A stretch of DNA of 64,000 bases from a virus (IMGVR_UViG_3300021431_000101:24817-88816), one strand, 5' to 3'; positions 2,534-58,845 are shown, counted from the first letter of the stretch. Made by a program: numbers and translations. Notes: generated by a model from the letters alone, not told the origin.

Positions 2534-2556
2534 AACCTCCCCCGTAGAAGAGATGT
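2534..2556 (-). repeat. G5 motif copy
   Basis: Minus strand ACATCTCTTCTACGGGGGAGGTT, intergenic. Confidence 0.85.
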
Positions 2557-2610
2557 AGATATTGTTGCCATGGTAATTGTAAGGTAAGTAAATGTTGTGA
2601 ACCAAATGCC

Positions 2611-2630
2611 ACATTTCTCTACGGGGGTTT
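2611..2630 (+). repeat. G5 motif copy
   Basis: ACATTTCTCTACGGGGGTTT, intergenic, inverted relative to 2534. Confidence 0.85.
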
Positions 2631-2657
2631 AATATTCCAACAAATAAACTTATAATT

Positions 2658-3350
2658 ATGGCATCTATTGCACAACTTACAAGTGAGCTTGCTCATTCAT
2701 TAGGGCAACCTAATAATAAAGCTCTTAGAGAAAATATAAAACTTCTTATATTAGAAACTAGAAATGAAGTTATAAGAAGAAGTTATGAAAATCATGGATA
2801 CGTTGATAAAGGTCTTACTCAAAGATATAAAGTAAGTTTAATATCTGTAAATGATGGTGAAGTTGTATTACCAGAAGGTTATGAAGATGTTGAAATTGAT
2901 AAAATAAGAAGAACAGAACAACAAGTTCCAAGACCTGTAAGACTTCCTAATAATTTACCATTTGATAGAGTTAGTACAGTAGGATTTAAAAATAATAGGG
3001 AAATACCTTTTATAAAAGAAACATCTGCTAGATTTAGAACTGCTATTCCTGGACTTTGTGGTATGCCTTGTTATGATTATATAAATGGTTTTATTTATAT
3101 ATTTCCAGCTGAAGGTAAAGATTGTCCTTATGGTAAAATTATAATAGAATCTGCATTTGAACATCCTAATGAAATCGATATAGCAAATGGTGTTACAACT
3201 GAATGGGATGCTTATATGGATACAAATGAATATCTTTTATCAGAAGACATGATTGGTCAAATAAAAGAAATAATATATAAAAGAGATATGTTATCTAATG
3301 TAAGACAAACAGATGAAATTCCTAAAACAATACAATTTAATCAAATATAA
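2658..3350 (+). CDS. tail ring/adaptor protein (crAss-like)
   Basis: 230 aa. Size and position before the IHF-like, tubular and muzzle genes match Crassvirales tail gene order. Confidence 0.55.
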   Translation: MASIAQLTSELAHSLGQPNNKALRENIKLLILETRNEVIRRSYENHGYVDKGLTQRYKVSLISVNDGEVVLPEGYEDVEIDKIRRTEQQVPRPVRLPNNLPFDRVSTVGFKNNREIPFIKETSARFRTAIPGLCGMPCYDYINGFIYIFPAEGKDCPYGKIIIESAFEHPNEIDIANGVTTEWDAYMDTNEYLLSEDMIGQIKEIIYKRDMLSNVRQTDEIPKTIQFNQI

Positions 3351-3352
3351 GT

Positions 3353-4297
3353 ATGGGAATAAAGAAAACACCGATAAGTATAAGAGTTTATTACAAAACT
3401 ATGAAAAATCGTTATAATGAAAAGTTAAACGAATTAGTCAATGAATGTAATGAATTAAAAACTTCTATAAAAACTATATATGAAGATATAAATAAAAATA
3501 TAGATAGTTATAAAAAACATATAAACTTAGAAGATTTTGATGAATTTACAAATAATGAATATACAACTGGTAAATTTTATAAAACAACAAAAGGTTTGTT
3601 TTATAAAGTAAAAAATACTGATGATTATGAACTTATAGCATTAGCTTCTGATTTATATAGTTTATCTAAAAAACAATTAGATTTATATAATGTAAAAAAA
3701 ACAGAAAACAAATATAAAACTATATTAAGTATTTCTTTTAAAGATTATGTTGCTATATTAAGAAGTTTTTATACAGAAGTACATAAACAACTGATATTAA
3801 AAGGTAGAGGTTATGCTTTAGAAGGAAAACTTGGATGGATTTGTATAAATAGAGTTCATATAAAAAAAGCTAGAAAATATATAGATTATCAAGCTACAAA
3901 GTTAAAGAAAAAAGAATTAAGAGTTCAAGGTAAAACTATATATAATAAAGAAGAAGCTGAATGGTGTAAACAAAATGGAATACCTTATGATGGTGTAGAT
4001 GGTAGAGTGTTTAGAAACATAGAATATTGTTATGAAGTTCCTCTTATAAATTGTACTTTACATAATAGTGTGAATTATAAATTAACAGTATCTGATTACA
4101 GAGGTAGTGAAATACGAGGTAAAACAAATATAGAACTAATAAAAAATTGTAACAGAGATAAAAATAAAATATGTGAGTTACCTTTAGATTTAAAATCTAA
4201 ACTCTCAATGTGTGATAATGTAGATAAAATGTTATATACAAATTTTATTAGAAATGAAAATCAAGAATCAATTAACTATACAAAGATTAGTAGGTAA
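3353..4297 (+). CDS. IHF/HU-like domain protein (crAss IHF_54 type)
   Basis: N-terminal coiled coil, then VHKQLILKGRGYALEGKLGWICINRV resembling HU/IHF beta arms. Conserved position before the tail tubular gene. Confidence 0.55.
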   Translation: MGIKKTPISIRVYYKTMKNRYNEKLNELVNECNELKTSIKTIYEDINKNIDSYKKHINLEDFDEFTNNEYTTGKFYKTTKGLFYKVKNTDDYELIALASDLYSLSKKQLDLYNVKKTENKYKTILSISFKDYVAILRSFYTEVHKQLILKGRGYALEGKLGWICINRVHIKKARKYIDYQATKLKKKELRVQGKTIYNKEEAEWCKQNGIPYDGVDGRVFRNIEYCYEVPLINCTLHNSVNYKLTVSDYRGSEIRGKTNIELIKNCNRDKNKICELPLDLKSKLSMCDNVDKMLYTNFIRNENQESINYTKISR

Positions 4298-5000
4298 AAT
4301 AGATAATGACTTTAATATTAGTGAAAGTGATTGGATACCTAGAGTTGCAGCTTGGACTATAGATGCTTTATCACAAATGAAAGTTCTTCCTTTTGAAAAG
4401 AAAAGAAGAAAACTAGAAGTGTCTGATAGAGTTGCAATATATCCTTGTGATATAAATAGTAAAGAATTTAAAGTGTTTGATAAAAATTGTAGAGAAATAC
4501 CTAATTTTAATGCTGCTAAAGATTGTTGTAATTCAGGGTTTGATGGTAAAAAATCAAATTCTGAAATTGCTGTTTTCGATAGTAGTAACAAAACTGGTAT
4601 AAATGCAATGCAGATAGCTACTGTTGTTAATTCAACAAATAGAAATTTTGTATTAAAAGGTAATAAAATATATTTAAATTTTGATACTGATTTTATATTT
4701 ACAGAATCTCTTGAAGTAGCTACTTATCATGATGACTATTATGATTGTGAATGTCCTTATATTTATGATGATGGTTTGTTATTAGAAGCATTAGCATGGT
4801 ATTGCTTATTTAAATATTTAAGTAGAGGTAGTTCACATCCTGTTTATAGTTTAAAATCTCCTAGTCCAGTAACTAATCCTTGGACTCAATGGAACACTCT
4901 TAGACCAAAAGCTGCTGCATCTGTTAAGATAGCTATTGGTAATAGTAGAGAAGGTTGGAATAATTTCTTTTATAATAGTACATTTTTACCTAGAAGTTAA
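4254..5000 (+). CDS. tail tubular/ring protein (P22 gp4-like)
   Basis: 248 aa, immediately upstream of the muzzle gene. Synteny with crAss-like phages. Confidence 0.6.
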   Translation: MKIKNQLTIQRLVGKIDNDFNISESDWIPRVAAWTIDALSQMKVLPFEKKRRKLEVSDRVAIYPCDINSKEFKVFDKNCREIPNFNAAKDCCNSGFDGKKSNSEIAVFDSSNKTGINAMQIATVVNSTNRNFVLKGNKIYLNFDTDFIFTESLEVATYHDDYYDCECPYIYDDGLLLEALAWYCLFKYLSRGSSHPVYSLKSPSPVTNPWTQWNTLRPKAAASVKIAIGNSREGWNNFFYNSTFLPRS

Positions 5001-5003
5001 ACT

Positions 5004-8000
5004 ATGGGACATATCATACCAAAATTAAATTTAAATAGAAATCCTGAACTTGTTGATAATTATGGTCTTGTATGTGCTAAAAATATAAGACTTTTACCAG
5101 ATGGTACTATAGGTCCAGATACTGCTGAAGTAAATTTAAATATACAAACTTTATTAAATGATTTACTTGAAACATCAGATGTTCTGTATAAGATAGTAGG
5201 TGTTATTCCTTATAACACTTGCTTTTATTTGTTTGTAGTATATGATAATAATTCATATATAATAAAATATGATGAAAAAACAAACAAGGTAGAAAAGTGT
5301 AATTGTAATTGGAATAGTCATTACACTGATGAAAACCCTACAAAAATAAATGGTCTTTGCAATGTAACATTACGAAATGAAATAATACTCAATATAGCTG
5401 AGTATTATGAAAATGAGAACGAAACTGTTGATAAGATACCATTTAAATCTATAAATTTAGCGTATAGTGATGAATCAGATGATGAATCTATTTATACTTT
5501 TGCTCCAAATATACCTGTTACAAATATAACATTTGAAGATTATTATTATGCTCAAATAAAAACAGGTATGTATGTGTTTTATGTAAGATATGAAATAAAA
5601 GATGGTGTATATACTAATTGGTTTTTAGCAAGTCTTCCAATGTATTCTGCATATTTTAAAACTTATAATACAGTACAAGGATATGTAAGAGGTATCGATG
5701 TTAATTTAGATGCAGATAAAGGATTTGTATTAAAAATAGACCATTTATTTGATGTAGGTAATATAAAGAAATTTCAATTAGGATTTAAAGCTTCTCTTGT
5801 TGATGGAGGTATTGTTGCAAGAAGTTGGAAAACATTTGATATAAGTACTAAACATATATATTTTGATTATTCTTTAGAGGATATAGAAGAAATAGATATA
5901 AGTGATTTAGAAAAGCCAGTAAATCAATTATATAATGTAAAAAATATTACTAATTTTAAAAACAAACTTTATTTTAGTAATTATACAGAAGAAGATTTTA
6001 ATCCTAATTTAATTATTCCTGATAATTATGTAACTATAGCACTTAAAACAAAAAAGTTTGAAACTAGGGGTTTAGTTATAAATGAAACTATATATAATGA
6101 TGTAACATTTGAAGTTGATTCTCAAAACGTTGCAACAGATAAAGTTATAAGTATAAAGGACCATAATGATATTTTGCATAGAGAAAATATTATAGATTGG
6201 TTTAAAGAAAGTGTTAGTACTATAGATGAGGTTATTCCTTATGGATATAACACGTTTTATACCACAGTTGATTTTTGTTTTAAATTTAATACTGCCGAAA
6301 TAGATGCAAAAACAAAAGATGGACAATCTACTCGTAAAACAAATATATACATAGTTATATCTCTTGATGATTATACAGAAACAGATACAATTTGTATAAA
6401 GCAAGGAGAATCTTGGAATTTTACTCCAACAGAACGCATACCAAATTGGAAGTTTACATTAGATTATGATGTAGGTTTTATTTCTGTTGATGGCTATAGA
6501 ATAACAAATGTAATTTTTGAACAAATAAACCCTTTAGATGATACAAAATATAAAATACAAAGATATAGCCCAGCACTTACTCTTGTAGGTAAAATAGTAC
6601 AAGGTCTTATAAATAATAATATTCAAACTTTGATACCATATCAAGGTTACAATTTTTATATACATTTTGTTAAAAGAAATGGTGTTGTAACAAATGGGTA
6701 TCCTATAGGTTCTGTTTATGTAGACAAAATTTCTGTACCAAATCTTGATGCTGTTAATTGTATTTATCCAACATTTACATTTAATGATGATTTACCTACT
6801 GGTTATGTAGGCTGCTTTATAAGTATGAGCCATGTTAAAAATCTCATAGTATCTTTATACACATTACATAAAAATTCACAAGATTCTATAAACAATGAAG
6901 ATACATCAGCTTTTGCAAATATTATAAATTATAAAGAAGCTTTTGATTTAGATACATTAAATATAGTTGAAAGTTTTGGTACAACGATTGACAAAGATGG
7001 TAATGATAAAGGACTTGGAACATATTATGCTGGTTCAGACCCAACAGATAGTAAAACTTTTGGTAGTAGTGGTAAATTTTACAGTCCTGAAGCTACAGCA
7101 GCTTATATCAAATATCCTTATAATGTAGAAAATGATGAAAATATAATATATAAAGCAACTAATTATATAACATATAATAGTGGTTACACATATGACAATG
7201 TAACAGATGTTTATTTACAAGGCTTTTTTTGTATTGTAACTAAACCAGCTAGAGCAGAATATGTACAATATATTGCAGGTAGTACTTTTTATTATAAAGA
7301 TTATGAAAATGATAATTATGATATTTATATAGAAACTGATTTACCTATATCACACAAATGGAACGATATAGGTGTGTCACACCCTAAAGTTGAAGTAGAT
7401 TTATATACTTATTTTGGTATATTTTCAAATTATAATAATAATTTTGTAACAATACAAGAAACTCCACAAACTAAAATAAAATCATATAAAGATACTCAAA
7501 ATCAATCTAGAACTAGAAATATTCTTTTAATAGATAGTGGTAATCTTTATCAAATATATTCGTTAAATGCAGCATTTAAAACTAAATTTACACAAGTATA
7601 TAAAAAAGAAAATAAATATCTTATTGATTTTAGTAATACAATTCGTAGTACTGGCATTTTAGATGAACAAGTAAATACTAGATATTATTTAGATGATACA
7701 GAATATTATAATATTCCTACAACAAAAGGAATAATCATAAATATGAAAGCTATAGGTAATTCTATAATAGTTCATACTGAAGATTCTATGTTTGTTTTTT
7801 CTGGTGCTAACACTTTATCTGCGCAAGGTGGAGAACAAATACAATTAAAAGAAGGAAACGTTTTTGAGTCTGGTATAAAAGAAGTATTTGGTTCAGAGTA
7901 TGGTTTTGGTGGTATACAAAAACATCATCATCAAATCAGTAGTGAAAATGGATATTTGTTTTATGATTCTGATAGCAAAAATATGTATGTATATCAAGAT

Positions 8001-8942
8001 AATCAACAATTACTTCCTATATCTAATAGTATAAAAAAGTTATTAAAAGATGTTATAGATGTAGAATTAGCTAGTGATTATTATAATGATAGATTTTTTA
8101 TAAAACTTATATATCCAAGTAGCAATAATTTAAGTAACAATGTAGTATTAAGTTTTAATGTAAAAACTAAATCATTTTTAAGTTTGCATGATATAAATTT
8201 TGATTATGCTTTCAATAGTAAAACTTTATGTTATTTTGTAAAAGATAATAATATTTATAGAAAAGAAGTTGTATATAGTTCAGAAAATACATTAGTGCAA
8301 CCGCTATACGATAATGTTGATATATTTCCAATATATATAAAACATACAAACGATAATAAAACTTTAGCTAAACCATATATTGATATTATATGTAATAACG
8401 ATTATGATAATGTTAAAGTTTTGGACTATGTTAGTTGGATATGTAAGAAAGTAAACAACCCCTATAGAGGAATACAGACAAATGAATTTGTTGAAACTGA
8501 TGACAATTCGCAATTAACAGAAATGAATGTTGCAGAAGAAGATGAAATAGATTATCCTGCACAAGGAATATTAATATATTCTAATCTTACTGCAAAAGGT
8601 ACAACATATTTCAAATTTAATACAGTAGCAGAATTAGATGCAATATTTAAAGAAAATAGAAGACTTTATGCTGAACAAGGTTTGTATGATGCTACAGGTG
8701 GCACTTATGGTAGTTTAAAACCTAGAGATATGCCTTATTTCCAATTAGGTCATTGGAACTATAATGGTTTTAGAAATGATTTAGATAACACTGATATTAC
8801 TGGAAGTGATTCTTATTCTGACAATAAGTCTTTGCTATATGGTAATTATTTTGTTGTACGATTGATATTTGATGTTGGTGTTAATTTTAAACTTAAAGAT
8901 TTAATGTTTGCAATAAATAACAGTTACGAAACAAGAAGATAA
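5004..8942 (+). CDS. tail muzzle / stabilization protein (P22 gp10-like)
   Basis: 1312 aa, beta-rich. KNKLYFSNY, WFLAS and GYLFYDSDSKNMYVY propeller-like segments, plus synteny. Confidence 0.7.
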   Translation: MGHIIPKLNLNRNPELVDNYGLVCAKNIRLLPDGTIGPDTAEVNLNIQTLLNDLLETSDVLYKIVGVIPYNTCFYLFVVYDNNSYIIKYDEKTNKVEKCNCNWNSHYTDENPTKINGLCNVTLRNEIILNIAEYYENENETVDKIPFKSINLAYSDESDDESIYTFAPNIPVTNITFEDYYYAQIKTGMYVFYVRYEIKDGVYTNWFLASLPMYSAYFKTYNTVQGYVRGIDVNLDADKGFVLKIDHLFDVGNIKKFQLGFKASLVDGGIVARSWKTFDISTKHIYFDYSLEDIEEIDISDLEKPVNQLYNVKNITNFKNKLYFSNYTEEDFNPNLIIPDNYVTIALKTKKFETRGLVINETIYNDVTFEVDSQNVATDKVISIKDHNDILHRENIIDWFKESVSTIDEVIPYGYNTFYTTVDFCFKFNTAEIDAKTKDGQSTRKTNIYIVISLDDYTETDTICIKQGESWNFTPTERIPNWKFTLDYDVGFISVDGYRITNVIFEQINPLDDTKYKIQRYSPALTLVGKIVQGLINNNIQTLIPYQGYNFYIHFVKRNGVVTNGYPIGSVYVDKISVPNLDAVNCIYPTFTFNDDLPTGYVGCFISMSHVKNLIVSLYTLHKNSQDSINNEDTSAFANIINYKEAFDLDTLNIVESFGTTIDKDGNDKGLGTYYAGSDPTDSKTFGSSGKFYSPEATAAYIKYPYNVENDENIIYKATNYITYNSGYTYDNVTDVYLQGFFCIVTKPARAEYVQYIAGSTFYYKDYENDNYDIYIETDLPISHKWNDIGVSHPKVEVDLYTYFGIFSNYNNNFVTIQETPQTKIKSYKDTQNQSRTRNILLIDSGNLYQIYSLNAAFKTKFTQVYKKENKYLIDFSNTIRSTGILDEQVNTRYYLDDTEYYNIPTTKGIIINMKAIGNSIIVHTEDSMFVFSGANTLSAQGGEQIQLKEGNVFESGIKEVFGSEYGFGGIQKHHHQISSENGYLFYDSDSKNMYVYQDNQQLLPISNSIKKLLKDVIDVELASDYYNDRFFIKLIYPSSNNLSNNVVLSFNVKTKSFLSLHDINFDYAFNSKTLCYFVKDNNIYRKEVVYSSENTLVQPLYDNVDIFPIYIKHTNDNKTLAKPYIDIICNNDYDNVKVLDYVSWICKKVNNPYRGIQTNEFVETDDNSQLTEMNVAEEDEIDYPAQGILIYSNLTAKGTTYFKFNTVAELDAIFKENRRLYAEQGLYDATGGTYGSLKPRDMPYFQLGHWNYNGFRNDLDNTDITGSDSYSDNKSLLYGNYFVVRLIFDVGVNFKLKDLMFAINNSYETRR
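8457..8473 (-). repeat. G-motif variant (CTATAGGGG class)
   Basis: Plus strand CAACCCCTATAGA (8456-8468), identical 13-mer at 16141 and 19888. Confidence 0.55.
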
Positions 8943-8943
8943 T

Positions 8944-10905
8944 ATGAAAAAGATAAAAGTTATAAAAAGAAAGAAAGCATTATTTGGTGCTGATGGTGCA
9001 GTTGCTGCTGGAGCTATATTGCTTGCATCTGCTGCTAATGTTGTAGCACAAGCTAAACAAGCTAAAGCTACAGAAGACTCTGCTAAACAACAAGCAGAAG
9101 CTATGCAGATTAGTGCTAAAACAAATGCTGATGCTTTAGAAAAGCAATCAGAAAATAATACAAAAATGCAAGAAAAAAGTATAGAACTTAATAAAGAGCA
9201 GTTTGAAGAACAACAACAAGCTCAAAGGGATATACAAATGCAATTACAAATGATGACAGGAGAAGAAAACACTAAAGAAAGAAATAGGCAATCAATGAAA
9301 GCTGCTAAATATGGTGGTAGAATAAAAGCAACAAATAAATTATCTCTTCTACGGGGGAGGAATAAGGAAATCAATATTACTGATGGTGGTAGTAAACAAT
9401 TATTAGGTATTACACCAGAAGGTTATGAGCTATATAAATTAAAAGGAGATACACATGACGAAAGTCATAGATTACCAAATGGCAGAAAAGCTACAGGTAT
9501 AGGTATTGATTTAACATCTAGAACAAACAAACAACATAATTATAAAAAAAGAACTGGTGATGTTGATATAGAAGCTGAAGGTGGAGAATATGCTTTATCT
9601 ACTCCAAATGATGTTTTATTTTTATCAAAACATAATATAAACGGATTTAATCCTAAAAAAGCAATAAATAAAGGTATGAACCCTATAGATGCTTTTAATA
9701 TTCAAGAAATATCTAAAGGTATGATAAATAGAAGAAAAAAAGAAATAGGTGGTATGTCTGATGTATTAAATCAACAATTATTACAAGGATATAACAGTAT
9801 ATTAAATAATGATATTGCTACAGGTGCTGCTACCACTAAAATGAAAAATGGAGGTTCTGCTAAAATAAGTCGTAATAAAAGATGGTCTGGCGGAGATACT
9901 ATAAATGCTGTAGGAGCAGGTGCTAATATTCTTACAAATATATTAGGTGGTGCTTTATATGGAAGTGCTGCTAATAGAGCAGCTGGTATTCTATCAGATG
10001 CTTATAGTAAAAGTGCTAGTATAACAGCAGATGCTTATAGTAGAATGCATGGTATTAGTGATGATTTTATAAAAGATGAAGATTTTAAAGCTACACATTT
10101 TATGCCAGCTATACGTTCTGCACAAGTAAGTACAAATAAAGAAGATACATTAGCTAAACGTGCTGCTGATGCACAAAGAAAAGCTATAAGAAATAATAGT
10201 GTAAGTAGTGCTGCTGCTTTAAATAGATTAAATGCTGTTTCTCAAACAGAGAATGATGCCAGAATAGCTAATGCTCAAGCCGCAGAAGAACAAGCTGAAA
10301 AAATAAGACAAGCTAATGCTGAACGTATCACTGAAGCTGCTGCTCAAAATGCTCAATTAGATACACAAGCTAAAAGAGATTTAACAGGTCTTAGATTACA
10401 ATTATTACAATATAATAATGATATTGAAAATGCTAAGATTGCAGGTATAGCAGAAGCACAAACTAGTGGTATCATGGGTGGTGCTCAAGCACAAGCTGAT
10501 GCTAAAACTAGTGTAGCTACTAATTGGGCTAATGCGTTATCTAATATAGGTTCTACATTACAAGGTACTGCTAATAATATTGCCACAGGTATGCAACAAG
10601 AAAAGTTAGCAGTATTAAATGCAACAGTTTCACAAAAAGGTGATTATTATGGTGAAGGTAATGGTACTTCTGCACAAGCTAGAAATTATTACGAACAACA
10701 AAAAGCTATAGCTGAAAATCCTAATTTAGCTAAGGATGTCAGAGAAGAAGCAGCAGCTAATGCTAATAAAATAGTTGCTGGTAGAACAGGATTAGGATTA
10801 CAAAAAGTAATTGTTGGAACACAAGTTATTAATGATATAAAACCTGGAGGTATTCTTCCTGATATACAAACAAGAAGTACAATAGGTGATAATTATATTG
10901 GTTAA
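8944..10905 (+). CDS. internal cargo/ejection protein 1
   Basis: 653 aa with Ala/Gln-rich helices, Gly/Ala hydrophobic segments and a KGDTHDES...EAEGGE motif. Follows the muzzle gene. Confidence 0.6.
   Translation: MKKIKVIKRKKALFGADGAVAAGAILLASAANVVAQAKQAKATEDSAKQQAEAMQISAKTNADALEKQSENNTKMQEKSIELNKEQFEEQQQAQRDIQMQLQMMTGEENTKERNRQSMKAAKYGGRIKATNKLSLLRGRNKEINITDGGSKQLLGITPEGYELYKLKGDTHDESHRLPNGRKATGIGIDLTSRTNKQHNYKKRTGDVDIEAEGGEYALSTPNDVLFLSKHNINGFNPKKAINKGMNPIDAFNIQEISKGMINRRKKEIGGMSDVLNQQLLQGYNSILNNDIATGAATTKMKNGGSAKISRNKRWSGGDTINAVGAGANILTNILGGALYGSAANRAAGILSDAYSKSASITADAYSRMHGISDDFIKDEDFKATHFMPAIRSAQVSTNKEDTLAKRAADAQRKAIRNNSVSSAAALNRLNAVSQTENDARIANAQAAEEQAEKIRQANAERITEAAAQNAQLDTQAKRDLTGLRLQLLQYNNDIENAKIAGIAEAQTSGIMGGAQAQADAKTSVATNWANALSNIGSTLQGTANNIATGMQQEKLAVLNATVSQKGDYYGEGNGTSAQARNYYEQQKAIAENPNLAKDVREEAAANANKIVAGRTGLGLQKVIVGTQVINDIKPGGILPDIQTRSTIGDNYIG
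9341..9360 (+). repeat. G5 motif copy
   Basis: TATCTCTTCTACGGGGGAGG, read as LSLLRGR inside the CDS. Confidence 0.85.
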
Positions 10906-13820: not shown

Positions 13821-16800
13821 ATGAATATAAATGATGTATTTAATGCAGGTGGTGCTTTAATTAAAAACCCAAATTATGCACCAGGTAATGGTCAACCTGA
13901 ATATATAACCTCAGTTAATGGTAATCCATTAGCTGAGGGCTTTTTTGATGATAGTGCTAGAGGAAATAACGCTATTGTCGGAACTACTAAAGATGGTCTT
14001 AAAGCGGCTAAGTATGGTATTACACAAAATAGATGGGAAGATTTAGATACTGTTTTAGCAGAAAAACAAAGTAATTGGGAGAAAACTTGGAATAGTGCAA
14101 AACAAACTGTATGGAATGAAATAGTATTAGGTACAGGTATTGGCATTGCTGATTTGTGTGATTTTGTTATTGGTGGTATTATTAGAAAAGCTTCTGGTGA
14201 AGAAAATGATTATTCTAATCCAGTTAGTGAATATTTAAAAGGAGTACAAGAAGAATATAAAGAAGACAATCCTATATATGCAACTCCTGGTGTTGATATA
14301 TTTAATGGAGGTTTGACTAATTGGGGATGGTATATGAATAATATGCCAAGTGTTGCTAGTACTTTAACTTTACTTATTCCTAGTACAGGTGTAGCAAAAG
14401 GTGCTGCTTATTTAGGAAAAGCTACTAAATTCTTTAAGGGTGTTGGTAATGCTAGAAAATTTATAACAGCTATAGACAAAGTAGATAAAGCAGCAGATGC
14501 AGCTAAAGCAGCAGGAAAAGAACTTGGTGTTTTAGGTAAAATTAGTCAATGGGCTAATAACGAAAATACTATAAGAACTACAAACCAAATGATTAATCTT
14601 GGTAGTAATGCTATGCTTCAACGTATAATGGAAAACTATCAAGAAAGTGGTCAAGTATATTCAGAACTTCTACCTAAAAGTACAGAAACCATAAATAATA
14701 TGTCTGATGAAGAATATGCAGCTTTTGTTGATAAAAATAAAGACATATTAGAAGGTGTCGATACTACTAATAAAGAAGATGTTGCAAAACGTATAACTAA
14801 AGCATCTGCTGATGAAACATTCAAATTAGATATGATTAATGGTGTTTTTGATGCTTTTCAAATGTATGGTTTAAGGAATGTAAGTAGATTTATGAACGCT
14901 CCTATGAGAGCAGCTGTAAGACGTAAACATTTAAATTCTATAAAATATGCTGGTAAAACAGAAAAAGAAGTTAATGAAATTTTAGCTAAAAGAAGTTTTG
15001 CACAAAAAGCTAAAGATAAGATTTCTGATTTAACTTATGGGAGTAAAATTCTTATAGGTTCTGAATTATCTGAAGGAGCAGAAGAAGCAATTAACTATAT
15101 AGCACAAGAAGAAGGATTAAATTATGGTAATATATTATTAAATTCTAAAGATGCTGATACAAATGATTTAACTAGTAGACTTTGGAAATACGCACAAGCA
15201 CCTCAATTATGGGAATCTGCTTTTTGGGGTGTTATGGGTGGTGTTGTATTCCAAGGTGGTGGTTCTGCACTTGCTAGAGCAAATAATGCTGTTAGAACAA
15301 AATACAATGAAAGAAAAAATAAACAAGATGATACTACAAAAGAACAAGTAAAACAAACAAGTTGGAGTGATGCTTTTAAAGATTCAGAAATAGAAGAAAG
15401 AAAACAAGATATTGAAAGTAGGGCAACTGCTTATAATACATTAGCTTCTGAAATAGAAGAAATAAATAATAACGATAAACTATCAAAAGAAGAAAAAGCT
15501 ATTGAACGTAAGAAAGCTTTTGATAAACATGATAGAAGTCTTCTTATGGATTCTATGTGGGCTGGTAATTATGATTTAACTAGAGCTTATTTAGAATCTG
15601 ATGAAGTTAAACAAGCTATGGTTGCTAGTGGTCTTTTAACACAAGAACAAGCAAATGAAAGACAACGTAATATTCTTACTTTAGCTGATAGATTAGAAGA
15701 ATCATTTAATAGAAATATGCGTGTTATAGGTAATGCTATGAGAGGCAAAGATGAAAAAACAGGAGCTGATTATAGTGAAGTACCTTATGAATATTTTAAG
15801 ATAATTGCTGCAGCAAATATGGGTTATGAACTTAGTGCAGAAGATTATCAAAAAGCTATAGATGAATATCAACCAACAATTAATAGCGAAGAAGAAAGAT
15901 TAGCTGATAAATTAAAAAATAATGGTATTGATTATAAACAAGCAATACGAGCTTATATAATAGCGCAACAATTAGGTCAAATAGAAGCTAATTTAGAAGC
16001 AGCTAAAAAAACTAAAAAACAAGGAAGAACAGATGATGATATTGACTCTAGTACTATATCTGGACAAACAACTATAGATGAATTAAATAATAGAAAGAAA
16101 GTTCTATTAAATATGCTACAAACTACTATGACAGGTGTAGCAACCCCTATAGATGAACAGCTTGTAAGTAGAGCTAATATGATTACTGTATTAAGAGCTG
16201 CAGCTGCTATTGAAAGAAATGCTAATGATGCTACAGGTTATAAGTATAATATAAAAGGAAAAAGATTTAAAGATGTAGATAATGCACTAGTTAAAGCTTA
16301 TGAAGAAGGTGAAGATAATTGGGCAGCTAACGCAAAAGCTTTATCTGCTTTACATTCTGATTTTGGTAATTTAAAGTATAATCAATTTGTTGATGCTTAT
16401 AATCATGCTAAAGTTGTTAATGAGAATATAGGTAAAGCTTTAGGTGTTGGTGGTGCTATAGATGATTTAAATAAACTTTCTAGTAGTTTATTAAAAGCTT
16501 ATGCTGGTGTTACAAATAATGAAATAGAAAAGAATATTGCATTATCTAACATAGCAAGAGATAGAGATACTGTAAGAAATTTAGCACACAAAGAACACAA
16601 TATAATGAACCAAGAACGTGGAGTTGTTCTTGAATATTGTAATAGTGTGTTGAAAGCATTATCTAAAAAATATTCTGGTGAATATGGTGATTTAAGTGAA
16701 GAACTTGCTTATGGTACTTTAAATAAAGAAGCTAGAGAAAAATTAAAAAGTATATTATCTAATGAAGATTTGATGCTTTATGATGATATGATGAAAATTA

Positions 16801-35527: not shown

Positions 35528-35543
35528 AGTTATATTATCTAAA

Positions 35544-36465: not shown

Positions 36466-36486
36466 ACATCTCCTTTACGGGGGTGC
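36466..36486 (+). repeat. G5 motif copy
   Basis: ACATCTCCTTTACGGGGGTGC, intergenic. Confidence 0.85.
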
Positions 36487-36516
36487 TTTATTCCATCTGT
36501 TTAATCTCATTTCTTT

Positions 36517-47358: not shown

Positions 47359-48276
47359 TTAATTAACTTCTTCAACTATTTCATAATCATCGGGACTAAG
47401 GTCTATATTCTCGACAATCTTCAACTCTGTGGTTTCCATCACACCCATTAACAAGTCAGCACCAATATCTCTAGCACCTAATGTAAATGCTCTGTGACCG
47501 ATAAGGATTTTAGCATATTTGATATAAGTATCTTTACTAAGTAAATCAGCTGCTTTAGCATCCGAAAAACTAAAATGACTTGTTGCAGTCATTTCTATTT
47601 CCTTACCATTAACCACTTTTCTTCTAGTAAACTTATATTCAGTTACAAAATCAATAGGTTGCGCAGCTACTCTAATAACAGGAAATTTACCTTCTTTAGC
47701 AATTTGTATTGCTTGAACTTTATTGATAGCTTTAACACACTTATCGCTTATTTGAAACTCATTATAAAGATTACCTTTCAAATCAGTGTACCATTTAACA
47801 GGATAAACACCTACAGTATCATCTGTTGTTTTGGTTTCTGCTTCTTTACTAGTACGACATTTAACACAATAATCAGGAAGTTGTGTTTCAAGATAAATCG
47901 TGTTACCGTCAGTAAATTGATACTGAGGGGTATAATCTTTAATACACTCCCAAGTTACCCCTGCCCTCAATAACAACGATTTAATGATATGAACATCAAC
48001 ACCAGTCTTACCATTAATAACGTGTATATGTTCAATACACGTTGAAAAAGGTAGTTGCAAATCTTGTGCTCTCATTAGAACTGCAAGTCCATCATTAACA
48101 CTTTTAATACCACCTTTTTCAGAAGATACTATCTTCTTTAGAAATACTTCTGCTTGTGCAAGTTGTTTTTCATCAAGAAGATTAAATACTTTAAGACCAG
48201 CATTAACATCATGTTGTTTTACAACAACTTGTTTGTCATTACTAGCTTTATTAGCTTTAATATCATTCTCAATCAT
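47359..48276 (-). CDS. RecT/ERF-like ssDNA annealing protein
   Basis: AQDLQLPFSTCIEHIHVINGKTGVDVHII and KILIGHRAFTLGARDIGADLLMG. Confidence 0.6.
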   Translation of the reverse strand: MIENDIKANKASNDKQVVVKQHDVNAGLKVFNLLDEKQLAQAEVFLKKIVSSEKGGIKSVNDGLAVLMRAQDLQLPFSTCIEHIHVINGKTGVDVHIIKSLLLRAGVTWECIKDYTPQYQFTDGNTIYLETQLPDYCVKCRTSKEAETKTTDDTVGVYPVKWYTDLKGNLYNEFQISDKCVKAINKVQAIQIAKEGKFPVIRVAAQPIDFVTEYKFTRRKVVNGKEIEMTATSHFSFSDAKAADLLSKDTYIKYAKILIGHRAFTLGARDIGADLLMGVMETTELKIVENIDLSPDDYEIVEEVN

Positions 48277-48306: not shown

Positions 48307-48338
48307 CAAAGATAGTAATAATTTTTCTAATCTACAAT
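48307..48338 (-). promoter_or_regulatory. possible Bacteroidetes promoter
   Basis: Minus strand ATTG, 20 nt, TATCTTTG, upstream of the RecT-like gene. Confidence 0.45.
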
Positions 48339-49775
48339 AACAAAATCAGAATTATCACTAAAAACTACATTTTTTTGATAATTATTAACAATTTTATGAT
48401 TTTCTGCTACATCTTTATTTAATAACTTTGTTTCCTCCAAAGAACCTTTTATATACAAGGTGTGTAAATTGAGTTGTGAGCCATTAAAATTTATGTGGCT
48501 TAATCTATATAGGTACGACTTAATATCTTCGCATAGAGGCGATGTTATGATGATTCTATCGACACTTATCGACAAGTCTTTATCGGGTGAATTATTTGTG
48601 CATAAAACACGCAAATTGCCATTATTAAATAAAGTCTGGTTTAATGTTTTTTGTGCTTGATACATCATCATTTTTCTTTTACCTTTGTTTACACCACTTT
48701 TATAAACAATAGGATTACCATCAACATCTATAGCAGGTATAGGGTCAACCTTATCGTGATAATTACCACATATTATAGTATCAGACATACTATTAATATA
48801 TTCTGTTACTTTATTAGCAAATTCTCCACGTTTGTTAATTATAAAAATTTTATCATTAGGATTATCATTTACTATCTTTAGTATTTCTTCTAATTTACCA
48901 TTATAATCAGATAATAAATTCGCTCTATTTCTTATTATTTCATAAGTTTGTGTAGCACGTTCACGAATATTATTCGGATTGTATAAAGCATCTATTTGAA
49001 TATTAAGTTCAACACTCATATCAAGATGGTCATTCCAACCATTTTCTTGTGCAATCTGATTACATATTTGAGTGGCAGATACATTATATTCACTATTACC
49101 TAATCTAGTTTGTTTAATAATATCAAAACTTCCAAATATATTTAATGATGTTGTAATATAATCATTATAATATTTAAGTAGTTTTCCTTCTTCAGTATTT
49201 TCAGGAATAGTGATACCAATCCACACATCTTCTATAGGGGTGCTAGTGCGAATCTCATCTATTTCGTTTTGTTTAAAATCTGGTAAAATAGGAGAATGTT
49301 TATACAATATATCTAATCTGTTTACATCTTTTATAGAATTAAGTATAAATAAATTAAATTTAGCTTGATTAAGTAGTTTTTCAACATATTGGTTTATATC
49401 TGTTACATGATAAAATATAACAAGATGTGGATTCCATATCCATTTTATCCAACCACTTATAGAATCAGCAAGATTAATAGTTACAATTTTAAGAGTTTTA
49501 TTACTAATAAGTTTTTTAAACTCTTTATTGTTTTCTTCATCATCTTGTGTTGTTATATATTCTATTAAATCAAGCCTTTCATTGTATGTACTTGTAAAAA
49601 TAACAACAATAGCTGTAGGAGAACGAGATAGTACTCGTTGTAGAACTCCTAATACGATAGCTTTATCATTAAAGTTTTTAGGTATAAGAGCAGTACCTTT
49701 ACCTTTAGCATCTCTCCAATGATTCATAGCTTCGTTAAATAATTCTTCAACTTTGTTCATAATCATCTTCATCAA
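48327..49775 (-). CDS. SF2 helicase-like protein with degenerate Walker motifs
   Basis: Layout AMNHW..KGKGTALIP / KIFII / LRVLCT / ISVDRIII matches phage DExH helicases, but GKT and DExH are absent. Confidence 0.6.
   Translation of the reverse strand: MMKMIMNKVEELFNEAMNHWRDAKGKGTALIPKNFNDKAIVLGVLQRVLSRSPTAIVVIFTSTYNERLDLIEYITTQDDEENNKEFKKLISNKTLKIVTINLADSISGWIKWIWNPHLVIFYHVTDINQYVEKLLNQAKFNLFILNSIKDVNRLDILYKHSPILPDFKQNEIDEIRTSTPIEDVWIGITIPENTEEGKLLKYYNDYITTSLNIFGSFDIIKQTRLGNSEYNVSATQICNQIAQENGWNDHLDMSVELNIQIDALYNPNNIRERATQTYEIIRNRANLLSDYNGKLEEILKIVNDNPNDKIFIINKRGEFANKVTEYINSMSDTIICGNYHDKVDPIPAIDVDGNPIVYKSGVNKGKRKMMMYQAQKTLNQTLFNNGNLRVLCTNNSPDKDLSISVDRIIITSPLCEDIKSYLYRLSHINFNGSQLNLHTLYIKGSLEETKLLNKDVAENHKIVNNYQKNVVFSDNSDFVIVD
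49225..49243 (+). repeat. G-motif variant (CTATAGGGG class)
   Basis: ACATCTTCTATAGGGGTGC. Confidence 0.65.
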
Positions 49776-52071
49776 ATAAATTTAAATATTGTCTTGCATG
49801 TTTTTTAATAGCACATTTACCACTAATAAGTTTATTTTTAGGGTCTGCTTTCATATTAGGTGATATACCTAATTTAATAGGGTCTATAATTTTATAACAT
49901 TCTTCATAATAATATTTATAATCAATATCTCTTAGTTCTATAGGCTTATCGTCAAGAGAATTTAATATTTGAACAGGTAGACCAGAAGCTAATCTACTAC
50001 GAGCGTGAGTAATATTATGTTCTTTTTGTAATATAACACCTTTTGTAGAAACATAAAATCGTACATGACGTTGACTATATTTAGTTTCAATTTTACCATT
50101 ATTCACAATATTATATACAACATTAAACTGTCTACCTATATTCTGTGTTTTACAAAAATCTAAAATATCTTTATGATTTCGTAAAGTTTCCATTATAGGC
50201 GTATTATGTACAAAATAATTAAATACAGCTATAGCAACAATAGGCATATCATAACCTTTCTTCAATTCTTTTAAATATTGTTTTGGGTCTAATGCACCTT
50301 TGTATTCAATAGTACCATCTTTTTGTATATCAAAATAATTATTTACATCTCTTGAAACAATAGAATCGTATATTTCATAATCAGCACCCATTTTGTTTGT
50401 TTCATTCCATCTATCAGTAATATCTTTATAGACATCAAATTTATCTTTAGGTAATTTAATAACGATACCATCAGTATTTGCAGATACTACATGAATACCA
50501 TTAAGTTCTAATTCTTCTATAAGTGTCATAGTCATTAATTGACCATTTATAGTAACTTGCATTTGTGCAAATCTATCATATAGAAAAAAGACATCGCTAC
50601 CTAATTTACCGTAAATAGAATTAATAACAATTTTAAGTGCTTCTGCTGCAATTTTATTAGGAACACCATCAATTACTAATCTTTCACTATCCTTAGTATG
50701 TTTACATTCTACACGAGTTTCCTTCATAAACTTTATCATTTTTATGAAAGCTCTCTTATTTAAATGTTTAGGACATATTTCATAAGAAACCATAATACTT
50801 GGATAATATGAAGTATAATCATGATGTAAATAAATAAAATTATCATCAGATTTACATATACGAGGAGGGTCTACACTATGTATTCCACCAGTAGCTAAAG
50901 TATATGTTGTACCATAAAATTTAACAGTTTTATTAAAACTGTCTTTATTAGTATGATAAATATATACTTTCTTTATTTCTGACAACATTTGTTGCAATTC
51001 TTTTGTTTTGAATTGGATGTGTGGAAATATAATCTTATCAAAACTAAGTCTTGTTCTTTCAGTTCTACCTTTTATAAATTGGTCTTTTCTAAGACCACTC
51101 ATATCAGAATAAAACTTAACAGTAAGTTTATCAGCAATATTAGCTCTAGCACTACATAGTACATTTATACCAAAAGCATGAGTAATACTATATCTAAGTT
51201 TAATTTCATCAGGCTTTTGTCTTACCATTTCACATACAATAAAAACGTCATTCTTATTGTAATATAGCATTGGTTCAACATATTTAGGTAAAATGTATCT
51301 CTCAAAATCATTAGTTATAAGTTTATTAAGAGAATTTAAATCAATACCTTTATAATTATCAAGTTTAGACCAATAAAGTCGATATTCCTCTTCCTCTATG
51401 GGGGGTATCACAAAATCTAATAACTCATGCCATTTAAGATTAATAGAAGTTTGTTTAAGAGATTTACCAAACTTTTGTCTTTCACCAGAATCTTTATTTA
51501 TTTGAACACTAGCAGAATGTAAACTGTGTATTCTTTGAACATCTACAGTTGCATAAGGTAAACGATATTGACGAATTAATTCAAGTTCTTTATCTTCATA
51601 AAATGCAGTTTTGTCTTGTTGTAGTTTTATAATCTTATCATTTATTTCTTTAAGTTTTTTAAGAAGGTATTTTGTATTATCAAAACGATTAAAATACATC
51701 ATAAATGCTTTAACCATTAAATCATCATAACCTTGATTATTAAAACCAAATAAATCATATCTTATAGGAATTTGAGATACACAACCATCATCATCTGTTT
51801 TAGTTTCGTATCTCGCCTGCATATTATTTATATAAGCTACTAAAGATAATAATTGGTCATCATTAGTATCAGATATATAAAATATATCACATTGAATTTT
51901 ATCTAATCGTTCTTTTATTTCTGCTACAGAAAGTTTTTCTGTTAATGCTATAGGATGTCCTTTTTCATCAACACAATCGGCAAATGTATTTAGATAATCT
52001 TTTAAATCAACAAATGTTATACTGAAAAGATTAATAAAACATTCAACATCCATTGCTTTAGATATTATCAT
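49747..52071 (-). CDS. polB: DNA polymerase family B
   Basis: Exo I MDVEC, motif A HDYTSYYPS, motif B KIVINSIYGKLG, motif C SANTDGI. Confidence 0.92.
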   Translation of the reverse strand: MIISKAMDVECFINLFSITFVDLKDYLNTFADCVDEKGHPIALTEKLSVAEIKERLDKIQCDIFYISDTNDDQLLSLVAYINNMQARYETKTDDDGCVSQIPIRYDLFGFNNQGYDDLMVKAFMMYFNRFDNTKYLLKKLKEINDKIIKLQQDKTAFYEDKELELIRQYRLPYATVDVQRIHSLHSASVQINKDSGERQKFGKSLKQTSINLKWHELLDFVIPPIEEEEYRLYWSKLDNYKGIDLNSLNKLITNDFERYILPKYVEPMLYYNKNDVFIVCEMVRQKPDEIKLRYSITHAFGINVLCSARANIADKLTVKFYSDMSGLRKDQFIKGRTERTRLSFDKIIFPHIQFKTKELQQMLSEIKKVYIYHTNKDSFNKTVKFYGTTYTLATGGIHSVDPPRICKSDDNFIYLHHDYTSYYPSIMVSYEICPKHLNKRAFIKMIKFMKETRVECKHTKDSERLVIDGVPNKIAAEALKIVINSIYGKLGSDVFFLYDRFAQMQVTINGQLMTMTLIEELELNGIHVVSANTDGIVIKLPKDKFDVYKDITDRWNETNKMGADYEIYDSIVSRDVNNYFDIQKDGTIEYKGALDPKQYLKELKKGYDMPIVAIAVFNYFVHNTPIMETLRNHKDILDFCKTQNIGRQFNVVYNIVNNGKIETKYSQRHVRFYVSTKGVILQKEHNITHARSRLASGLPVQILNSLDDKPIELRDIDYKYYYEECYKIIDPIKLGISPNMKADPKNKLISGKCAIKKHARQYLNLFDEDDYEQS
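51389..51406 (+). repeat. G5 motif variant
   Basis: TCTTCCTCTATGGGGGGT, antisense in polB (IPPIEEE). Confidence 0.65.
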
Positions 52072-52637
52072 ATATAAGTCACTTCATAATTACGTACTAT
52101 ATTGTTATCAATAATGTTATTATACCAATTAACTAAATGCTTTTGAAATACATCAAATAAATTAACATTTACTAGTTTAACCAAAGGAGAATAATTTACA
52201 GCATATCTTATACCTTTTTTACTTATAAATATATTATTAAGATATTCACCTGGATTGATACCGAGAAATCTTCTACAAGCATTACCTAATAAAAGAATAT
52301 CATGAAACTTATAAGTTCTAACATCATTTGCCAAAAAATGTAAACATTTATTATAAGTAATTTCATCTATTGGACAACTGATAGTTTCATTACAACGTAT
52401 GAGAGGAACTATATATAGCTTTTCTAATATATCGTTTTGCTCTTCCTCCCCCGTAGAGAAGATGTGCTGTATGATTTCAATTTGCTCACTAAAACTTAAA
52501 CTACCTTTTTTATAAGCACTATAATCTACATTAGGTATCACAATACATATTCCATTCCACGGATTGCCAACACCTTGTAGATTATAATGTTTAGTGTTAT
52601 ATAGTTTTAATGCACAATCATCACAAATATTGTTCAT
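52068..52637 (-). CDS. family-4 uracil-DNA glycosylase-like protein (Fe-S), catalytic motifs degenerate
   Basis: C5-x2-C8...C82-x15-C98, QGVGNP, ILLLGN. No GE(A/G)PG or HP motif. Confidence 0.65.
   Translation of the reverse strand: MNNICDDCALKLYNTKHYNLQGVGNPWNGICIVIPNVDYSAYKKGSLSFSEQIEIIQHIFSTGEEEQNDILEKLYIVPLIRCNETISCPIDEITYNKCLHFLANDVRTYKFHDILLLGNACRRFLGINPGEYLNNIFISKKGIRYAVNYSPLVKLVNVNLFDVFQKHLVNWYNNIIDNNIVRNYEVTYI
52445..52465 (-). repeat. G5 motif copy
   Basis: Minus strand ACATCTTCTCTACGGGGGAGG, read as HIFSTGE. Confidence 0.88.
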
Positions 52638-57713: not shown

Positions 57714-57830
57714 AAATGTAGGACTTCCACCTACTGTTTACACATAGTTGTTATAGAAAGAAAGTATTAATGGCAGTATTAGCATTATGTGTAATCTTAT
57801 TTTAATTATATTCACATATAATATCAATAG

Positions 57831-57902
57831 TAGAGTATAGGGGAATCGAACCCCTATTAACAGAATGAAAATCTGTCGTCCTAACCGTTAGACGAATACT
57901 CC
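57831..57902 (-). tRNA. tRNA-Glu(UUC)
   Basis: Acceptor GGAGTAT/ATACTCT, ACAGA-TTTTCAT-TCTGT, GGGGTTCGATTCCCC. Confidence 0.92.
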
Positions 57903-57905
57903 AAA

Positions 57906-58104: not shown

Positions 58105-58196
58105 GCAATCTCATCATAATTGTTCTCAAATAAGATATTATTATCATTTTCACAAATAACAATAATTATATACGCATTTATCATCAAAAGTGATTG

Positions 58197-58267
58197 TTGG
58201 ACTAAGAAGATTCGAACTTCTACAAACAGAACCAAAATCTGTTGTGCTACCATTACACTATAGTCCA
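58197..58267 (-). tRNA. tRNA-Gln(UUG)
   Basis: Acceptor TGGACTA/TAGTCCA, ACAGA-TTTTGGT-TCTGT, GAAGTTCGAATCTTC. Confidence 0.92.
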
Positions 58268-58316
58268 ATAAAAGTATAACTATTTTCACAAACTGTTATA
58301 CTTGTTTATATTACTA

Positions 58317-58568
58317 CTAAATAAATATACATATATTTGCAATAATACTTGCAATTAATAAACCACAAGTAATTATAGTAATTATTCGATATTTATCTAT
58401 AACTTTTAAAATACTATCAACATACTCGTTATTTTCTTCTGTTTTAGTAAAAAGATTATCACAAACATCGTCATAATCATTCTTAATATGAGCATAATCT
58501 TTTTGACTTTTAATTAACATATCTACTAATTCATTTTTAGTCTTTTTTAGTAATGTTCCTTTTGTCAT
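58317..58568 (-). CDS. small coiled-coil protein with C-terminal TM
   Basis: 83 aa ending IITIITCGLLIASIIANICIFI. Confidence 0.7.
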   Translation of the reverse strand: MTKGTLLKKTKNELVDMLIKSQKDYAHIKNDYDDVCDNLFTKTEENNEYVDSILKVIDKYRIITIITCGLLIASIIANICIFI

Positions 58569-58584
58569 AATATTAATATTTTAA

Positions 58585-58737
58585 TTATTCAAATTCAATA
58601 TCGCAATCATCAGATTCATTATCATCAATCAAATGTTGATAATAATCAGCATCATCATAATCTTGCGTTATACAATCTGTATCAATATTGATGTTGTAAT
58701 CATCAAAATCATTTATAGTATCATCTGTGTATTCCAT
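58585..58737 (-). CDS. 50-aa extremely acidic protein (not in ORF track)
   Basis: Hand-translated MEYTDDTINDFDDYNINIDTDCITQDYDDADYYQHLIDDNESDDCDIEFE: 20 D/E, no K/R. Confidence 0.65.
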   Translation of the reverse strand: MEYTDDTINDFDDYNINIDTDCITQDYDDADYYQHLIDDNESDDCDIEFE

Positions 58738-58742
58738 AAATG

Positions 58743-58750
58743 CAAATATA
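58743..58750 (-). promoter_or_regulatory. -7 box TATATTTG, 5 nt upstream of an ATG
   Basis: Exact TAnnTTTG. No clear -33 box. Confidence 0.45.
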
Positions 58751-58824
58751 CAATATTTTCTTTAAAGGGGTGCTATATTACAACAAAATTAACATAATTA
58801 ACTTTTGTTAAGAGTTGGAATAAA

Positions 58825-58845
58825 GCACCCCTGTAGAAGAGTTGT
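58825..58845 (-). repeat. G-motif variant paired with an inverted partial copy at 58758-58774
   Basis: Minus strand ACAACTCTTCTACAGGGGTGC. AGGGGTGCT / AGCACCCCT 9-bp inverted repeat. Confidence 0.6.

Follow-up and report, generated by a model that had tools for sequence, protein, structure and literature searches.

A G-rich DNA motif of about 22 nt recurs throughout a 64,000-nt stretch of a viral genome (bases 24817-88816 of the 88.8-kb IMG/VR record IMGVR_UViG_3300021431_000101; hereafter the window, in whose coordinates positions are given). The closest named relative of this virus is the uncultured phage cr271_1 (Crassvirales, Intestiviridae, Obtuvirinae), with ~75% DNA identity in the polymerase region and 69% identity in the primase. 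The motif is a strand-specific, phage-private signal whose copy number and per-strand spacing are under selection. It is family-wide in the Intestiviridae, at ~20-30 copies per genome, and very probably acts at the level of DNA through a phage-encoded reader. We found no published description of an evenly spaced, strand-alternating signal in crAss-like phages. Full-text literature searches (for the word itself, the crAss001 word discussed below, crAss motifs and crAss termini) returned no description of it, and neither the study of the lifestyle of prototype crAssphage (PMC10983915) nor the virion RNA polymerase (RNAP) paper mentions the word.

Copies of the motif in the genome

An exact search of the window finds 11 copies of the core TACGGGGG, where dinucleotide shuffles average 0.02 and never exceed 1. 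Plus-strand cores lie at 2620, 9350, 17534, 20810, 27182, 36476 and 43049, and minus-strand cores at 2539-2546, 37636-37643, 44561-44568 and 52448-52455; a related core, TACGGGGA, occupies 27715-27722 on the minus strand. An earlier reading of the window from its sequence alone (the sequence-only reading) had reported these copies, and all are real. The sites it gave are right, though its numbers fall 3-10 nt below the lowest base of each core because they mark the low-coordinate ends of a longer motif. The pyrimidine-rich 5' flank and the AGG, GTT or TGC at the 3' side are as it described. Absent from it were six variant copies: TATAGGGG at 8466-, 16151-, 19898- and 49233+, TATGGGGG at 51397+ and TACAGGGG at 58835-. 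Counterparts of the variant at 49233+ are found in 11 of 11 relatives, of that at 19898- in two and of that at 8466- in one. The 13-mer CAACCCCTATAGA (8455-8476, 16140-16161 and 19887-19908), listed as a separate finding in the sequence-only reading, turns out, when reverse-complemented, to be the TATAGGGG-TTG variant of this motif.

Defined as TAYRGGGG after a pyrimidine tract, the motif occurs 18 times in the window and ~23 times in the whole 88.8-kb genome (14+/9-), where exact copies of TACGGGGG number 14. Nearly all GGGGG runs in the genome fall within the motif. A codon-preserving shuffle, in which proteins, codon usage and intergenic DNA stay unchanged, leaves ~0.5 coding copies where 17 are observed, and it also strips the coding copies from prototype crAssphage (p-crAssphage) and crAss002; a codon or amino-acid artefact is thereby ruled out. 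Identical sites are present in independent assemblies, and the copies are therefore not the assembly artefacts that the sequence-only reading had allowed for. Of the three outcomes which that reading had named as refuting it (loss of the enrichment under such a shuffle, absence from related genomes, and artefactual sites), none came about.

Anatomy and dialects across the Intestiviridae

Each copy consists of a ~10-nt pyrimidine tract, T/C-A-Y-R, a G-run and 3-8 lineage-specific bases, in total ~22-24 nt. The information is restricted to about -10 to +12 around TAY, comprising ~22 informative positions, and amounts to ~30 bits. The A of T/C-A-Y is invariant in 12 of 12 dialects and is followed by Y-R-GGG.

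Every Intestiviridae relative examined carries the motif. The core occurs 16-26 times in three further IMG/VR genomes of ~90 kb, 17 times in cr271_1, 35 times in crAss002, 33 times in cr107_1, 26 times in Rudgehvirus jaberico and 27 times in cr3_1. The initial counts for cr8_1 (12) and prototype crAssphage (Carjivirus communis; 10) rise to ~27 and ~31, respectively, when their own dialects are counted. A reversed-word control in Intestiviridae genomes gave 0-2 copies per strand. A strict first scan of a contig collection returned few contigs because its pattern was dialect-specific; a second scan gave, among the matches listed, many ~90-kb contigs with several copies.

The dialects differ in both flanks and in the core. 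In the window genome the spelling is ACATCTCYTY-TACGGGGG-AGGT, in G001 it is ACATTTCTTC-TACGGGGG-AGCTTAT, and in G002 it is TTCTTC-TACGGGGG-AAGCCTTG. Prototype crAssphage uses TCCATCCTC-[TC]ACGGGG[GA]-GTMWAS and cr8_1 uses ACATACCTTT-TACGGGG[CG]-GGCTAGA, while Rudgehvirus carries CTCCTY-TACAGGGG, crAss002 carries CTCCTT-TAYGGGGG-AA and the L039 genome carries TTC-TATAGGGG. The dialect of ctbg_1, YYCCCTT-TACGGGC-CAGC, was initially mistaken for absence of the motif. The 3' flank types among the dialects include AGGT, AGCTTAT, AAGCCTTG, GTC and GGCTAGA. Within each genome all copies spell alike, and flanks and core vary in concert between genomes. Such a concerted change across all the sites of a genome is the mark left by co-evolution with a single trans-acting reader. 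Phages of Bacteroides hosts differ among themselves in dialect.

Strand alternation and even spacing

Across the pooled genomes, 157 copies are in the sense and 116 in the antisense orientation relative to genes (~40% antisense). The coding copies comprise 115 sense and 89 antisense, and the intergenic copies between co-directional genes 42 sense and 27 antisense. With these proportions the motif is no simple gene promoter, as the sequence-only reading had concluded. Copies are enriched 3.5-fold in non-coding DNA, where ~8% of the sequence holds 28% of them; the other 72% lie inside open reading frames (ORFs).

Both orientations are used, as previously noted, but their order is not haphazard. 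Summed over genomes, the strands switch 125 times along the sequence against 85 expected (z = 6.3), with 28 of 31 possible switches in crAss002 (17+/15- copies), 28 of 32 in cr107_1, 20 of 25 in Rudgehvirus and, from the site list, 14 of 17 in this window. Copies on the same strand are also evenly spaced: the mean same-strand gap is mostly about 5.4-9 kb, and its coefficient of variation (CV) is 0.22-0.48 in most sets, compared with ~0.9 for random placement in simulations. Individual sites turn over, with ~40% of this genome's alignable coding sites kept in near relatives and two of them family-wide, one in the primase gene and one antisense in the helicase gene. Since the spacing persists while the sites themselves are replaced, selection must maintain density and spacing on each strand.

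Close neighbours follow a strict geometry. All 23 pairs less than 400 bp apart are in opposite orientation, and 12 of the 15 pairs less than 120 bp apart are divergent, that is, back to back. Divergent pairs only 25-35 bp apart turn up repeatedly across several genera, in G002 and crAss002 and, as read from the site lists, in p-crAssphage and cr8_1; the window itself has a back-to-back pair at 2546-/2620+. In p-crAssphage (BK010471) a divergent pair at 28083-28177, 94 bp apart, lies ~540 bp upstream of repL at the arm junction. For this phage a preprint (PMC10983915) predicts a replication origin upstream of one of its two repL genes, possibly this one.

Constraint at the level of DNA

The sequence-only reading held that selection acts on the nucleic acid and not on the protein, leaving DNA or RNA as options. 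The first part is borne out by the codon shuffle and by the copy in the primase gene (coding sequence nt 824-832; nt 925 in p-crAssphage), where 14 of 15 genomes carry the word. One frame translates it as ..Y-G-G.. and another as ..P-L-R/Q-G.., and because the word is kept in two frames with different amino acids, the constraint is on the DNA. The L039 genome accommodates its own TATAGGGG dialect at this site through a residue change, YGG to YRG. The residues flanking the word are not conserved, and the site falls between two conserved primase blocks, in a variable linker whose length with and without the word agrees within 1-3 aa. Both the primase site and the helicase-antisense site are orthologous family-wide, and site orthology spans genomes with 45-70% protein identity.

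No indel is found at the primase site and the word leaves no footprint, which rules out an inserted mini-element. Neither terminal repeats nor target duplications were seen at the copies, conservation being confined to -10 to +12. A GC-rich multi-copy word in an AT-rich genome, with some copies in genes whose frames stay intact, does recall miniature mobile elements or repeats such as miniature inverted-repeat transposable elements, Rickettsia palindromic elements or mitochondrial GC clusters. That explanation, or a codon or assembly artefact, is scarcely credible given the lack of indels and target duplications, the orthologous sites, the removal of the word by codon shuffling and the agreement of independent assemblies.

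On the choice between DNA and RNA, DNA is favoured. As single-stranded DNA the motif forms a negligible hairpin between pyrimidine tract and G-run. As RNA, nine of the 11 copies in the window reach -7 to -11 kcal/mol (z -1.2 to -4.2, below -2 in six) in a 6-8-bp hairpin with a UACG tetraloop, in which G-U pairs render the fold strand-specific; only certain dialects, this one among them, have such a stable stem. These folds are what an RNA element acting as a processing, stability or regulatory signal would offer. Stem pairs 5 and 6 show no covariation across relatives, however, and pairs 1-4 are trivially pyrimidine against G. The cr8_1 (GGGGC) and ctbg_1 (GGGCC) dialects disrupt the stem without compensation: fold energy in cr8_1 is no better than in shuffles, and ctbg_1 has no hairpin centred on the loop. 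A single-stranded DNA or RNA hairpin was therefore rejected as a conserved feature. Because covariation is absent, the stem is broken in two dialects and ~40% of copies are antisense, the RNA fold is best regarded as a by-product, and an RNA element is highly improbable.

Search for the reader

The word YTAYGGGGGA was counted in five Bacteroidales genomes, namely Bacteroides xylanisolvens (the host species of crAss002), B. stercorirosoris, Phocaeicola vulgatus, another Bacteroides and Segatella copri. It occurs 4-33 times per 4-6 Mb, approximately as often as its reversed control, and the core is, by a rough estimate, ~60-fold less dense there than in the phage; the ~90-kb phage genomes each contain some 25-35 copies. 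Given that the word is at background in Bacteroidales, including the host species of crAss002, the reader is not the host's; a host Chi or uptake word was likewise rejected on this count. Together with the joint shift of flanks and core in each genome, these counts uphold the proposal in the sequence-only reading that the motif is recognised by a phage system.

The identity of that system was not betrayed by gene content. A tblastn presence/absence profile nominated no reader, though it was too insensitive for crAss001 and phi14:2. The T7-like RNAP domain PF00940 has no match in the genome, yet the control genomes are equally silent.

A proposed start site for primer or RNA synthesis

We tentatively propose that nucleic-acid synthesis starts at each copy, by priming or initiation, a mechanism we infer from the anatomy and placement of the motif. 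The motif very probably serves as a strand-specific cis-signal, recognised on DNA by a co-evolving phage-encoded protein. A primer or short RNA would start at the invariant A of TAY and enter the G-run (pppA-C/U-R-GGG) with the C-rich strand as template, and the product would be a very stable rG:dC hybrid within a 28% G+C genome. Even starts on each strand, about every 5-8 kb, could then feed discontinuous or recombination-dependent replication, and the tight back-to-back pairs might fire outward, akin to small bidirectional origins. Candidate readers would be the phage DnaG-type primase or the virion RNAP working as a primase. A start signal is favoured because it would account at once for the invariant A followed by Y-R-GGG, the stable hybrid of the G-run, the even supply on both strands and the back-to-back pairs.

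Known initiation signals offer partial parallels. The T7 and T4 primases begin primers with pppAC, and the invariant A with Y-R-GGG is compatible with a primase start, though by itself no evidence of priming. Primase start sites include 5'-GTC-3' for T7 gp4 (strong sites GGGTC, TGGTC and GTGTC), GTT or GCT for T4 gp61 and CTG for DnaG, with primers beginning pppA-C or pppA-G beside a cryptic base. Single-strand initiation (ssi) signals are 40-nt hairpins and include G4 oric and the ssiA and ssiB signals of RSF1010, which lie on opposite strands and face away from each other. Primase sites and ssi signals resemble the crAss motif in being strand-specific and needed at intervals, and the RSF1010 pair resembles its back-to-back pairs. 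Primase trinucleotides are short and very frequent, however, whereas the crAss motif is ~22 nt long with only ~25 copies per genome, and it lacks the conserved hairpin of ssi signals.

Several points weigh against a start site. The same-strand spacing of 5-8 kb is long for Okazaki fragments. A length of ~22 nt far exceeds the 3-5 nt normally read by DnaG-type primases, and a special strong site must therefore be assumed. The back-to-back geometry suits a divergent promoter or a pair of bound proteins equally well. Scans of 30 replication-arm ORFs against Pfam and PHROGs surfaced no sequence-specific nuclease or binding protein. In the study of the phi14:2 virion RNAP, early transcripts had no common upstream motif; phi14:2 itself has no word comparable to this one, so any link to the virion RNAP is hypothetical.

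Among the alternatives, the copies may be nickase sites, that is, programmed single-strand interruptions on both strands of the packaged or replicating genome, although we consider this fairly unlikely. The nick motifs of T5/BF23, phiKMV-like, tf and LUZ24-like phages are the closest published pattern (PMC3517423), and like the crAss motif they are non-palindromic, placed within genes regardless of frame, found at similar positions in relatives and spelled in lineage-specific variants. Their 9-20-nt consensus differs between related phages, from which the authors infer co-evolution with the nickase; the function is unexplained after decades, and the variant tracks an unidentified phage enzyme. 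The nick motifs compared (T5, phiKMV-like, tf/LUZ24-like) are nevertheless one-stranded, with no even spacing reported, whereas the crAss motif uses both strands in alternation, is even on each and forms tight back-to-back pairs. At divergent pairs 25-35 bp apart, each strand of the AT-rich duplex would be nicked a short way from the other, in a stagger that risks a double-strand break. T5 mutants without nicks are viable (PMC3517423), whereas the signal here is kept family-wide inside essential genes. No nuclease, HNH or other, is conserved beside the sites, the ligase-adjacent HNH gene of cr271_1 being absent here, and literature searches gave no paper on nicks in crAss-like phages. Binding sites for a structural or organising protein, acting in capsid condensation or anchoring, as roadblocks, as loop anchors or in partition, are an unlikely explanation, on which orientation would have no bearing beyond the way bound proteins face one another. 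Even spacing, indifference to gene direction, non-coding enrichment and a long information-rich site would all fit, and back-to-back pairs suit dimeric binding. It is the sites on each separate strand that are even, however, and not merely all sites pooled, which points to a process tracking along one strand. The strong asymmetry of a pyrimidine tract followed by a G-run is also unusual for architectural proteins, and the replication-arm domain scans gave no candidate binding protein.

It is distinctly unlikely that the motif is a promoter for a phage RNAP, virion or other, from which mRNAs, antisense RNAs or entry-driving transcription would start at the G-run. The T7-group promoters (T7, T3, SP6 and K11) are 23 bp long, and the T7-type consensus is CTATA-GGGAGA. 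The motif matches this anatomy in its length, its lineage-specific upstream block, a TATA-like conserved TAY(R) followed by a purine at +1 and a G-rich start, and its apparent co-evolution with a phage-encoded reader, which in the T7 group is the polymerase, and the TATAGGGG variants add to the likeness. Several intergenic copies lie 28-57 nt upstream of a same-strand ATG, and the promoters of crAss virion RNAPs are not known. Yet the crAss sites are mostly in genes, on both strands and not co-oriented with genes: their orientation is near random overall (157 vs 116) and between genes (42 vs 27), and the majority are deep within coding sequence, including 3-7 kb into giant ORFs. Transcription that drives entry would demand a single orientation. 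PF00940 is silent in this genome but equally so in the control genomes, which makes it a weak test. A Chi-like signal, at which a helicase-nuclease (AddAB/RecBCD of the host, or a RecD-like helicase of the phage together with a nuclease) would stop degrading DNA and turn to recombination, is very unlikely. Chi sites, DNA uptake sequences and uptake signal sequences resemble the motif as over-represented asymmetric words, held at the DNA level in genes, orientation-dependent and needed in both orientations; even spacing of each orientation is what selection for protection on either side of a break would produce. The word is G-rich and asymmetric, and the phage encodes a RecD-like superfamily 1 helicase, a Gam-like protein and a positional counterpart of RecT (47359-48276). 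Those known signals, however, are 5-12-nt words of cellular genomes with cellular readers, and known Chi sites are 5-8 nt, whereas the crAss word is informative over ~22 nt, is at background in host-type genomes and varies among phages of one host genus. The Bacteroidales counts refute the host version, no candidate nuclease is found among the scanned replication-arm ORFs, and we know of no precedent for a phage-encoded Chi reader.

Positions of individual copies

The back-to-back pair near the left end of the window is intergenic and 74 bp apart. Its left half, ACATCTCTTC-TACGGGGG-AGGT, lies at 2535-2556 on the minus strand, and its right half, with the 3' flank TTTA, at 2610-2631 on the plus strand, 38 nt upstream of the ATG at 2658. 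The variant TCCTC-TATAGGGG-TTG at 8455-8476 (-) is antisense within a 1312-aa ORF (5004-8942), and cr3_1 has a copy in the same orientation at the aligned position. The next copy, at 9340-9361 (+), is sense in ORF 8944-10905 at a position common to cr271_1, G003 and cr8_1.

Four copies lie in the 2432-aa ORF (13821-21119). The variants TTCATC-TATAGGGG-TTG (16140-16161, -) and TTTCTC-TATAGGGG-TTG (19887-19908, -) are antisense, the latter at a position common to G001 and cr8_1. The copies at 17524-17545 (+) and 20800-20821 (+) are sense, the first ~3.7 kb from the start of the ORF and the second close to its end; G001 and G003 have a copy ~3.6 kb into their homologous giant ORFs. The 4590-aa ORF (21138-34910) holds a sense copy at 27172-27193 (+) and the antisense TACGGGGA copy at 27711-27732 (-), the position and orientation of the latter being common to cr271_1, G001, G003 and cr8_1.

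Further right, a copy at 36466-36487 (+) with the 3' flank TGCTTTATTCC is intergenic between the dUTPase gene and ORF 36517-36798 and opposes the minus-arm genes. The copy at 37632-37653 (-) is sense in the DUF932 gene (37581-38642), 62 nt short of its end, at a position common to G003. At 43039-43060 (+) a copy lies antisense in the ATP-dependent DNA ligase gene (42069-43313), as in p-crAssphage and ctbg_1. The primase copy, kept in two frames, is sense at 44557-44578 (-), coding sequence nt 832. The helicase gene (48327-49775) carries the antisense variant CATCTTC-TATAGGGG-TGCT at 49223-49244 (+), for which all 11 relatives tested have a same-orientation copy, and the family-B DNA polymerase gene (49747-52071) carries the antisense variant TTCCTC-TATGGGGG-GTAT at 51387-51408 (+). 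A copy at 52444-52465 (-) is sense in ORF 52068-52637, a uracil-DNA glycosylase by homology to cr271_1, at a position common to cr271_1, G002, G003 and cr8_1. The rightmost copy, the variant AACTCTTC-TACAGGGG-TGCTTTATTCC at 58824-58845 (-), is intergenic. The copies 36476+ and 58835- have an extended 3' flank in common (TGCTTTATTCCAWCT; 36484-36498 and 58813-58827) that continues past the usual end of the motif; this shared flank of intergenic minus-arm copies suggests a longer repeated regulatory unit. The sequence TATAGGGGAATCGAACCCCTATTA at 57830-57860 resembles a tRNA T-arm and is not a copy of the motif.

Genome organisation

The two gene arms of the genome, which has a G+C content of 28%, converge near 35 kb of the window. 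The plus arm carries structural genes and the giant ORFs of 2432 and 4590 aa, the latter read as a virion RNAP by analogy with the annotation of homologous giant ORFs in crAss002 and p-crAssphage. The minus arm carries replication genes, whose domains (Pfam and PHROGs, 30 ORFs) include thioredoxin, dUTPase, DUF932, Gp157/Gam-like, ThyX, DUF3310, ATP-dependent ligase, PolB and a RecD-like helicase; ORF 47359-48276 matches by position the RecT gene annotated in cr271_1. A thioredoxin-like ORF, an ORF related to crAss001_48 and the phage/plasmid-related DUF932 ORF adjoin the arm junction (35252-35852 and 37581-38642), where the gene order agrees with that of prototype crAssphage (Gam-like, DUF932, dUTPase, thioredoxin). 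The DNA polymerase of cr271_1 (83336-86033) is annotated as two coding sequences ~390 nt apart, while 49747-52071 of the window is a single ORF; the RecD-like helicase is likewise in two pieces in cr271_1 and in one ORF here. The split genes of cr271_1 could be caused by introns, frameshifts or annotation.

Words in other Crassvirales families

In crAss001 (MH675552, Steigviridae) the 9-mer CTCCAGAAG occurs 29 times against a Markov expectation of 1.8, and the codon shuffle leaves ~3.7 coding copies where 25 are observed. Its copies switch strand 20 of 28 times (p = 0.008) and are evenly spaced on each strand (CV 0.47 and 0.54). The word is found 15 times in cr112_1 but only 3-8 times in other genera of the Steigviridae. 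The trinucleotide CTG, which E. coli DnaG recognises, is present on the complement of CTCCAGAAG. This word may be an analogue of the Intestiviridae signal. In cr127_1 (MT774393, Crevaviridae), a word of ~40 nt, TAATGGC-CACAAGGG-CGAGAGGTGTTCCGAAAT, has 10 copies on both strands that are very evenly spaced on each (CV ~0.2). The marine Cellulophaga crAss-like phage phi14:2 (NC_021806) has no strongly over-represented 8-10-mer, and over-represented private words may therefore be a trait of gut lineages.

Implications for crAss-like phages

The Intestiviridae include prototype crAssphage, which the literature ranks among the human gut's most abundant and persistent phages. How members of the family replicate, transcribe with the virion polymerase and handle their DNA is largely uncharted. 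The signal described here has been kept throughout the history of the family within the genes for primase, helicase, polymerase, ligase and giant virion proteins, and a central step of the life cycle must depend on copies being evenly placed along each strand. As a defined oligonucleotide at defined positions, the motif is a concrete experimental handle, with crAss002 and Rudgehvirus jaberico as cultured carriers. Its dialects could mark lineages, and they may explain incompatibility or recombination barriers among co-infecting relatives. More speculatively, and with considerable doubt, crAss-family gut phages might replicate from private, strand-specific start words of ~22 nt, evenly spaced on each strand, that are read by their own primase or virion RNAP to make G-rich primers, word and reader co-evolving as a lineage-specific 'replication key'. 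If this is true, the analogous words in other families, CTCCAGAAG and the 40-nt word of cr127_1, would make such keys a principle of the order Crassvirales as a whole.

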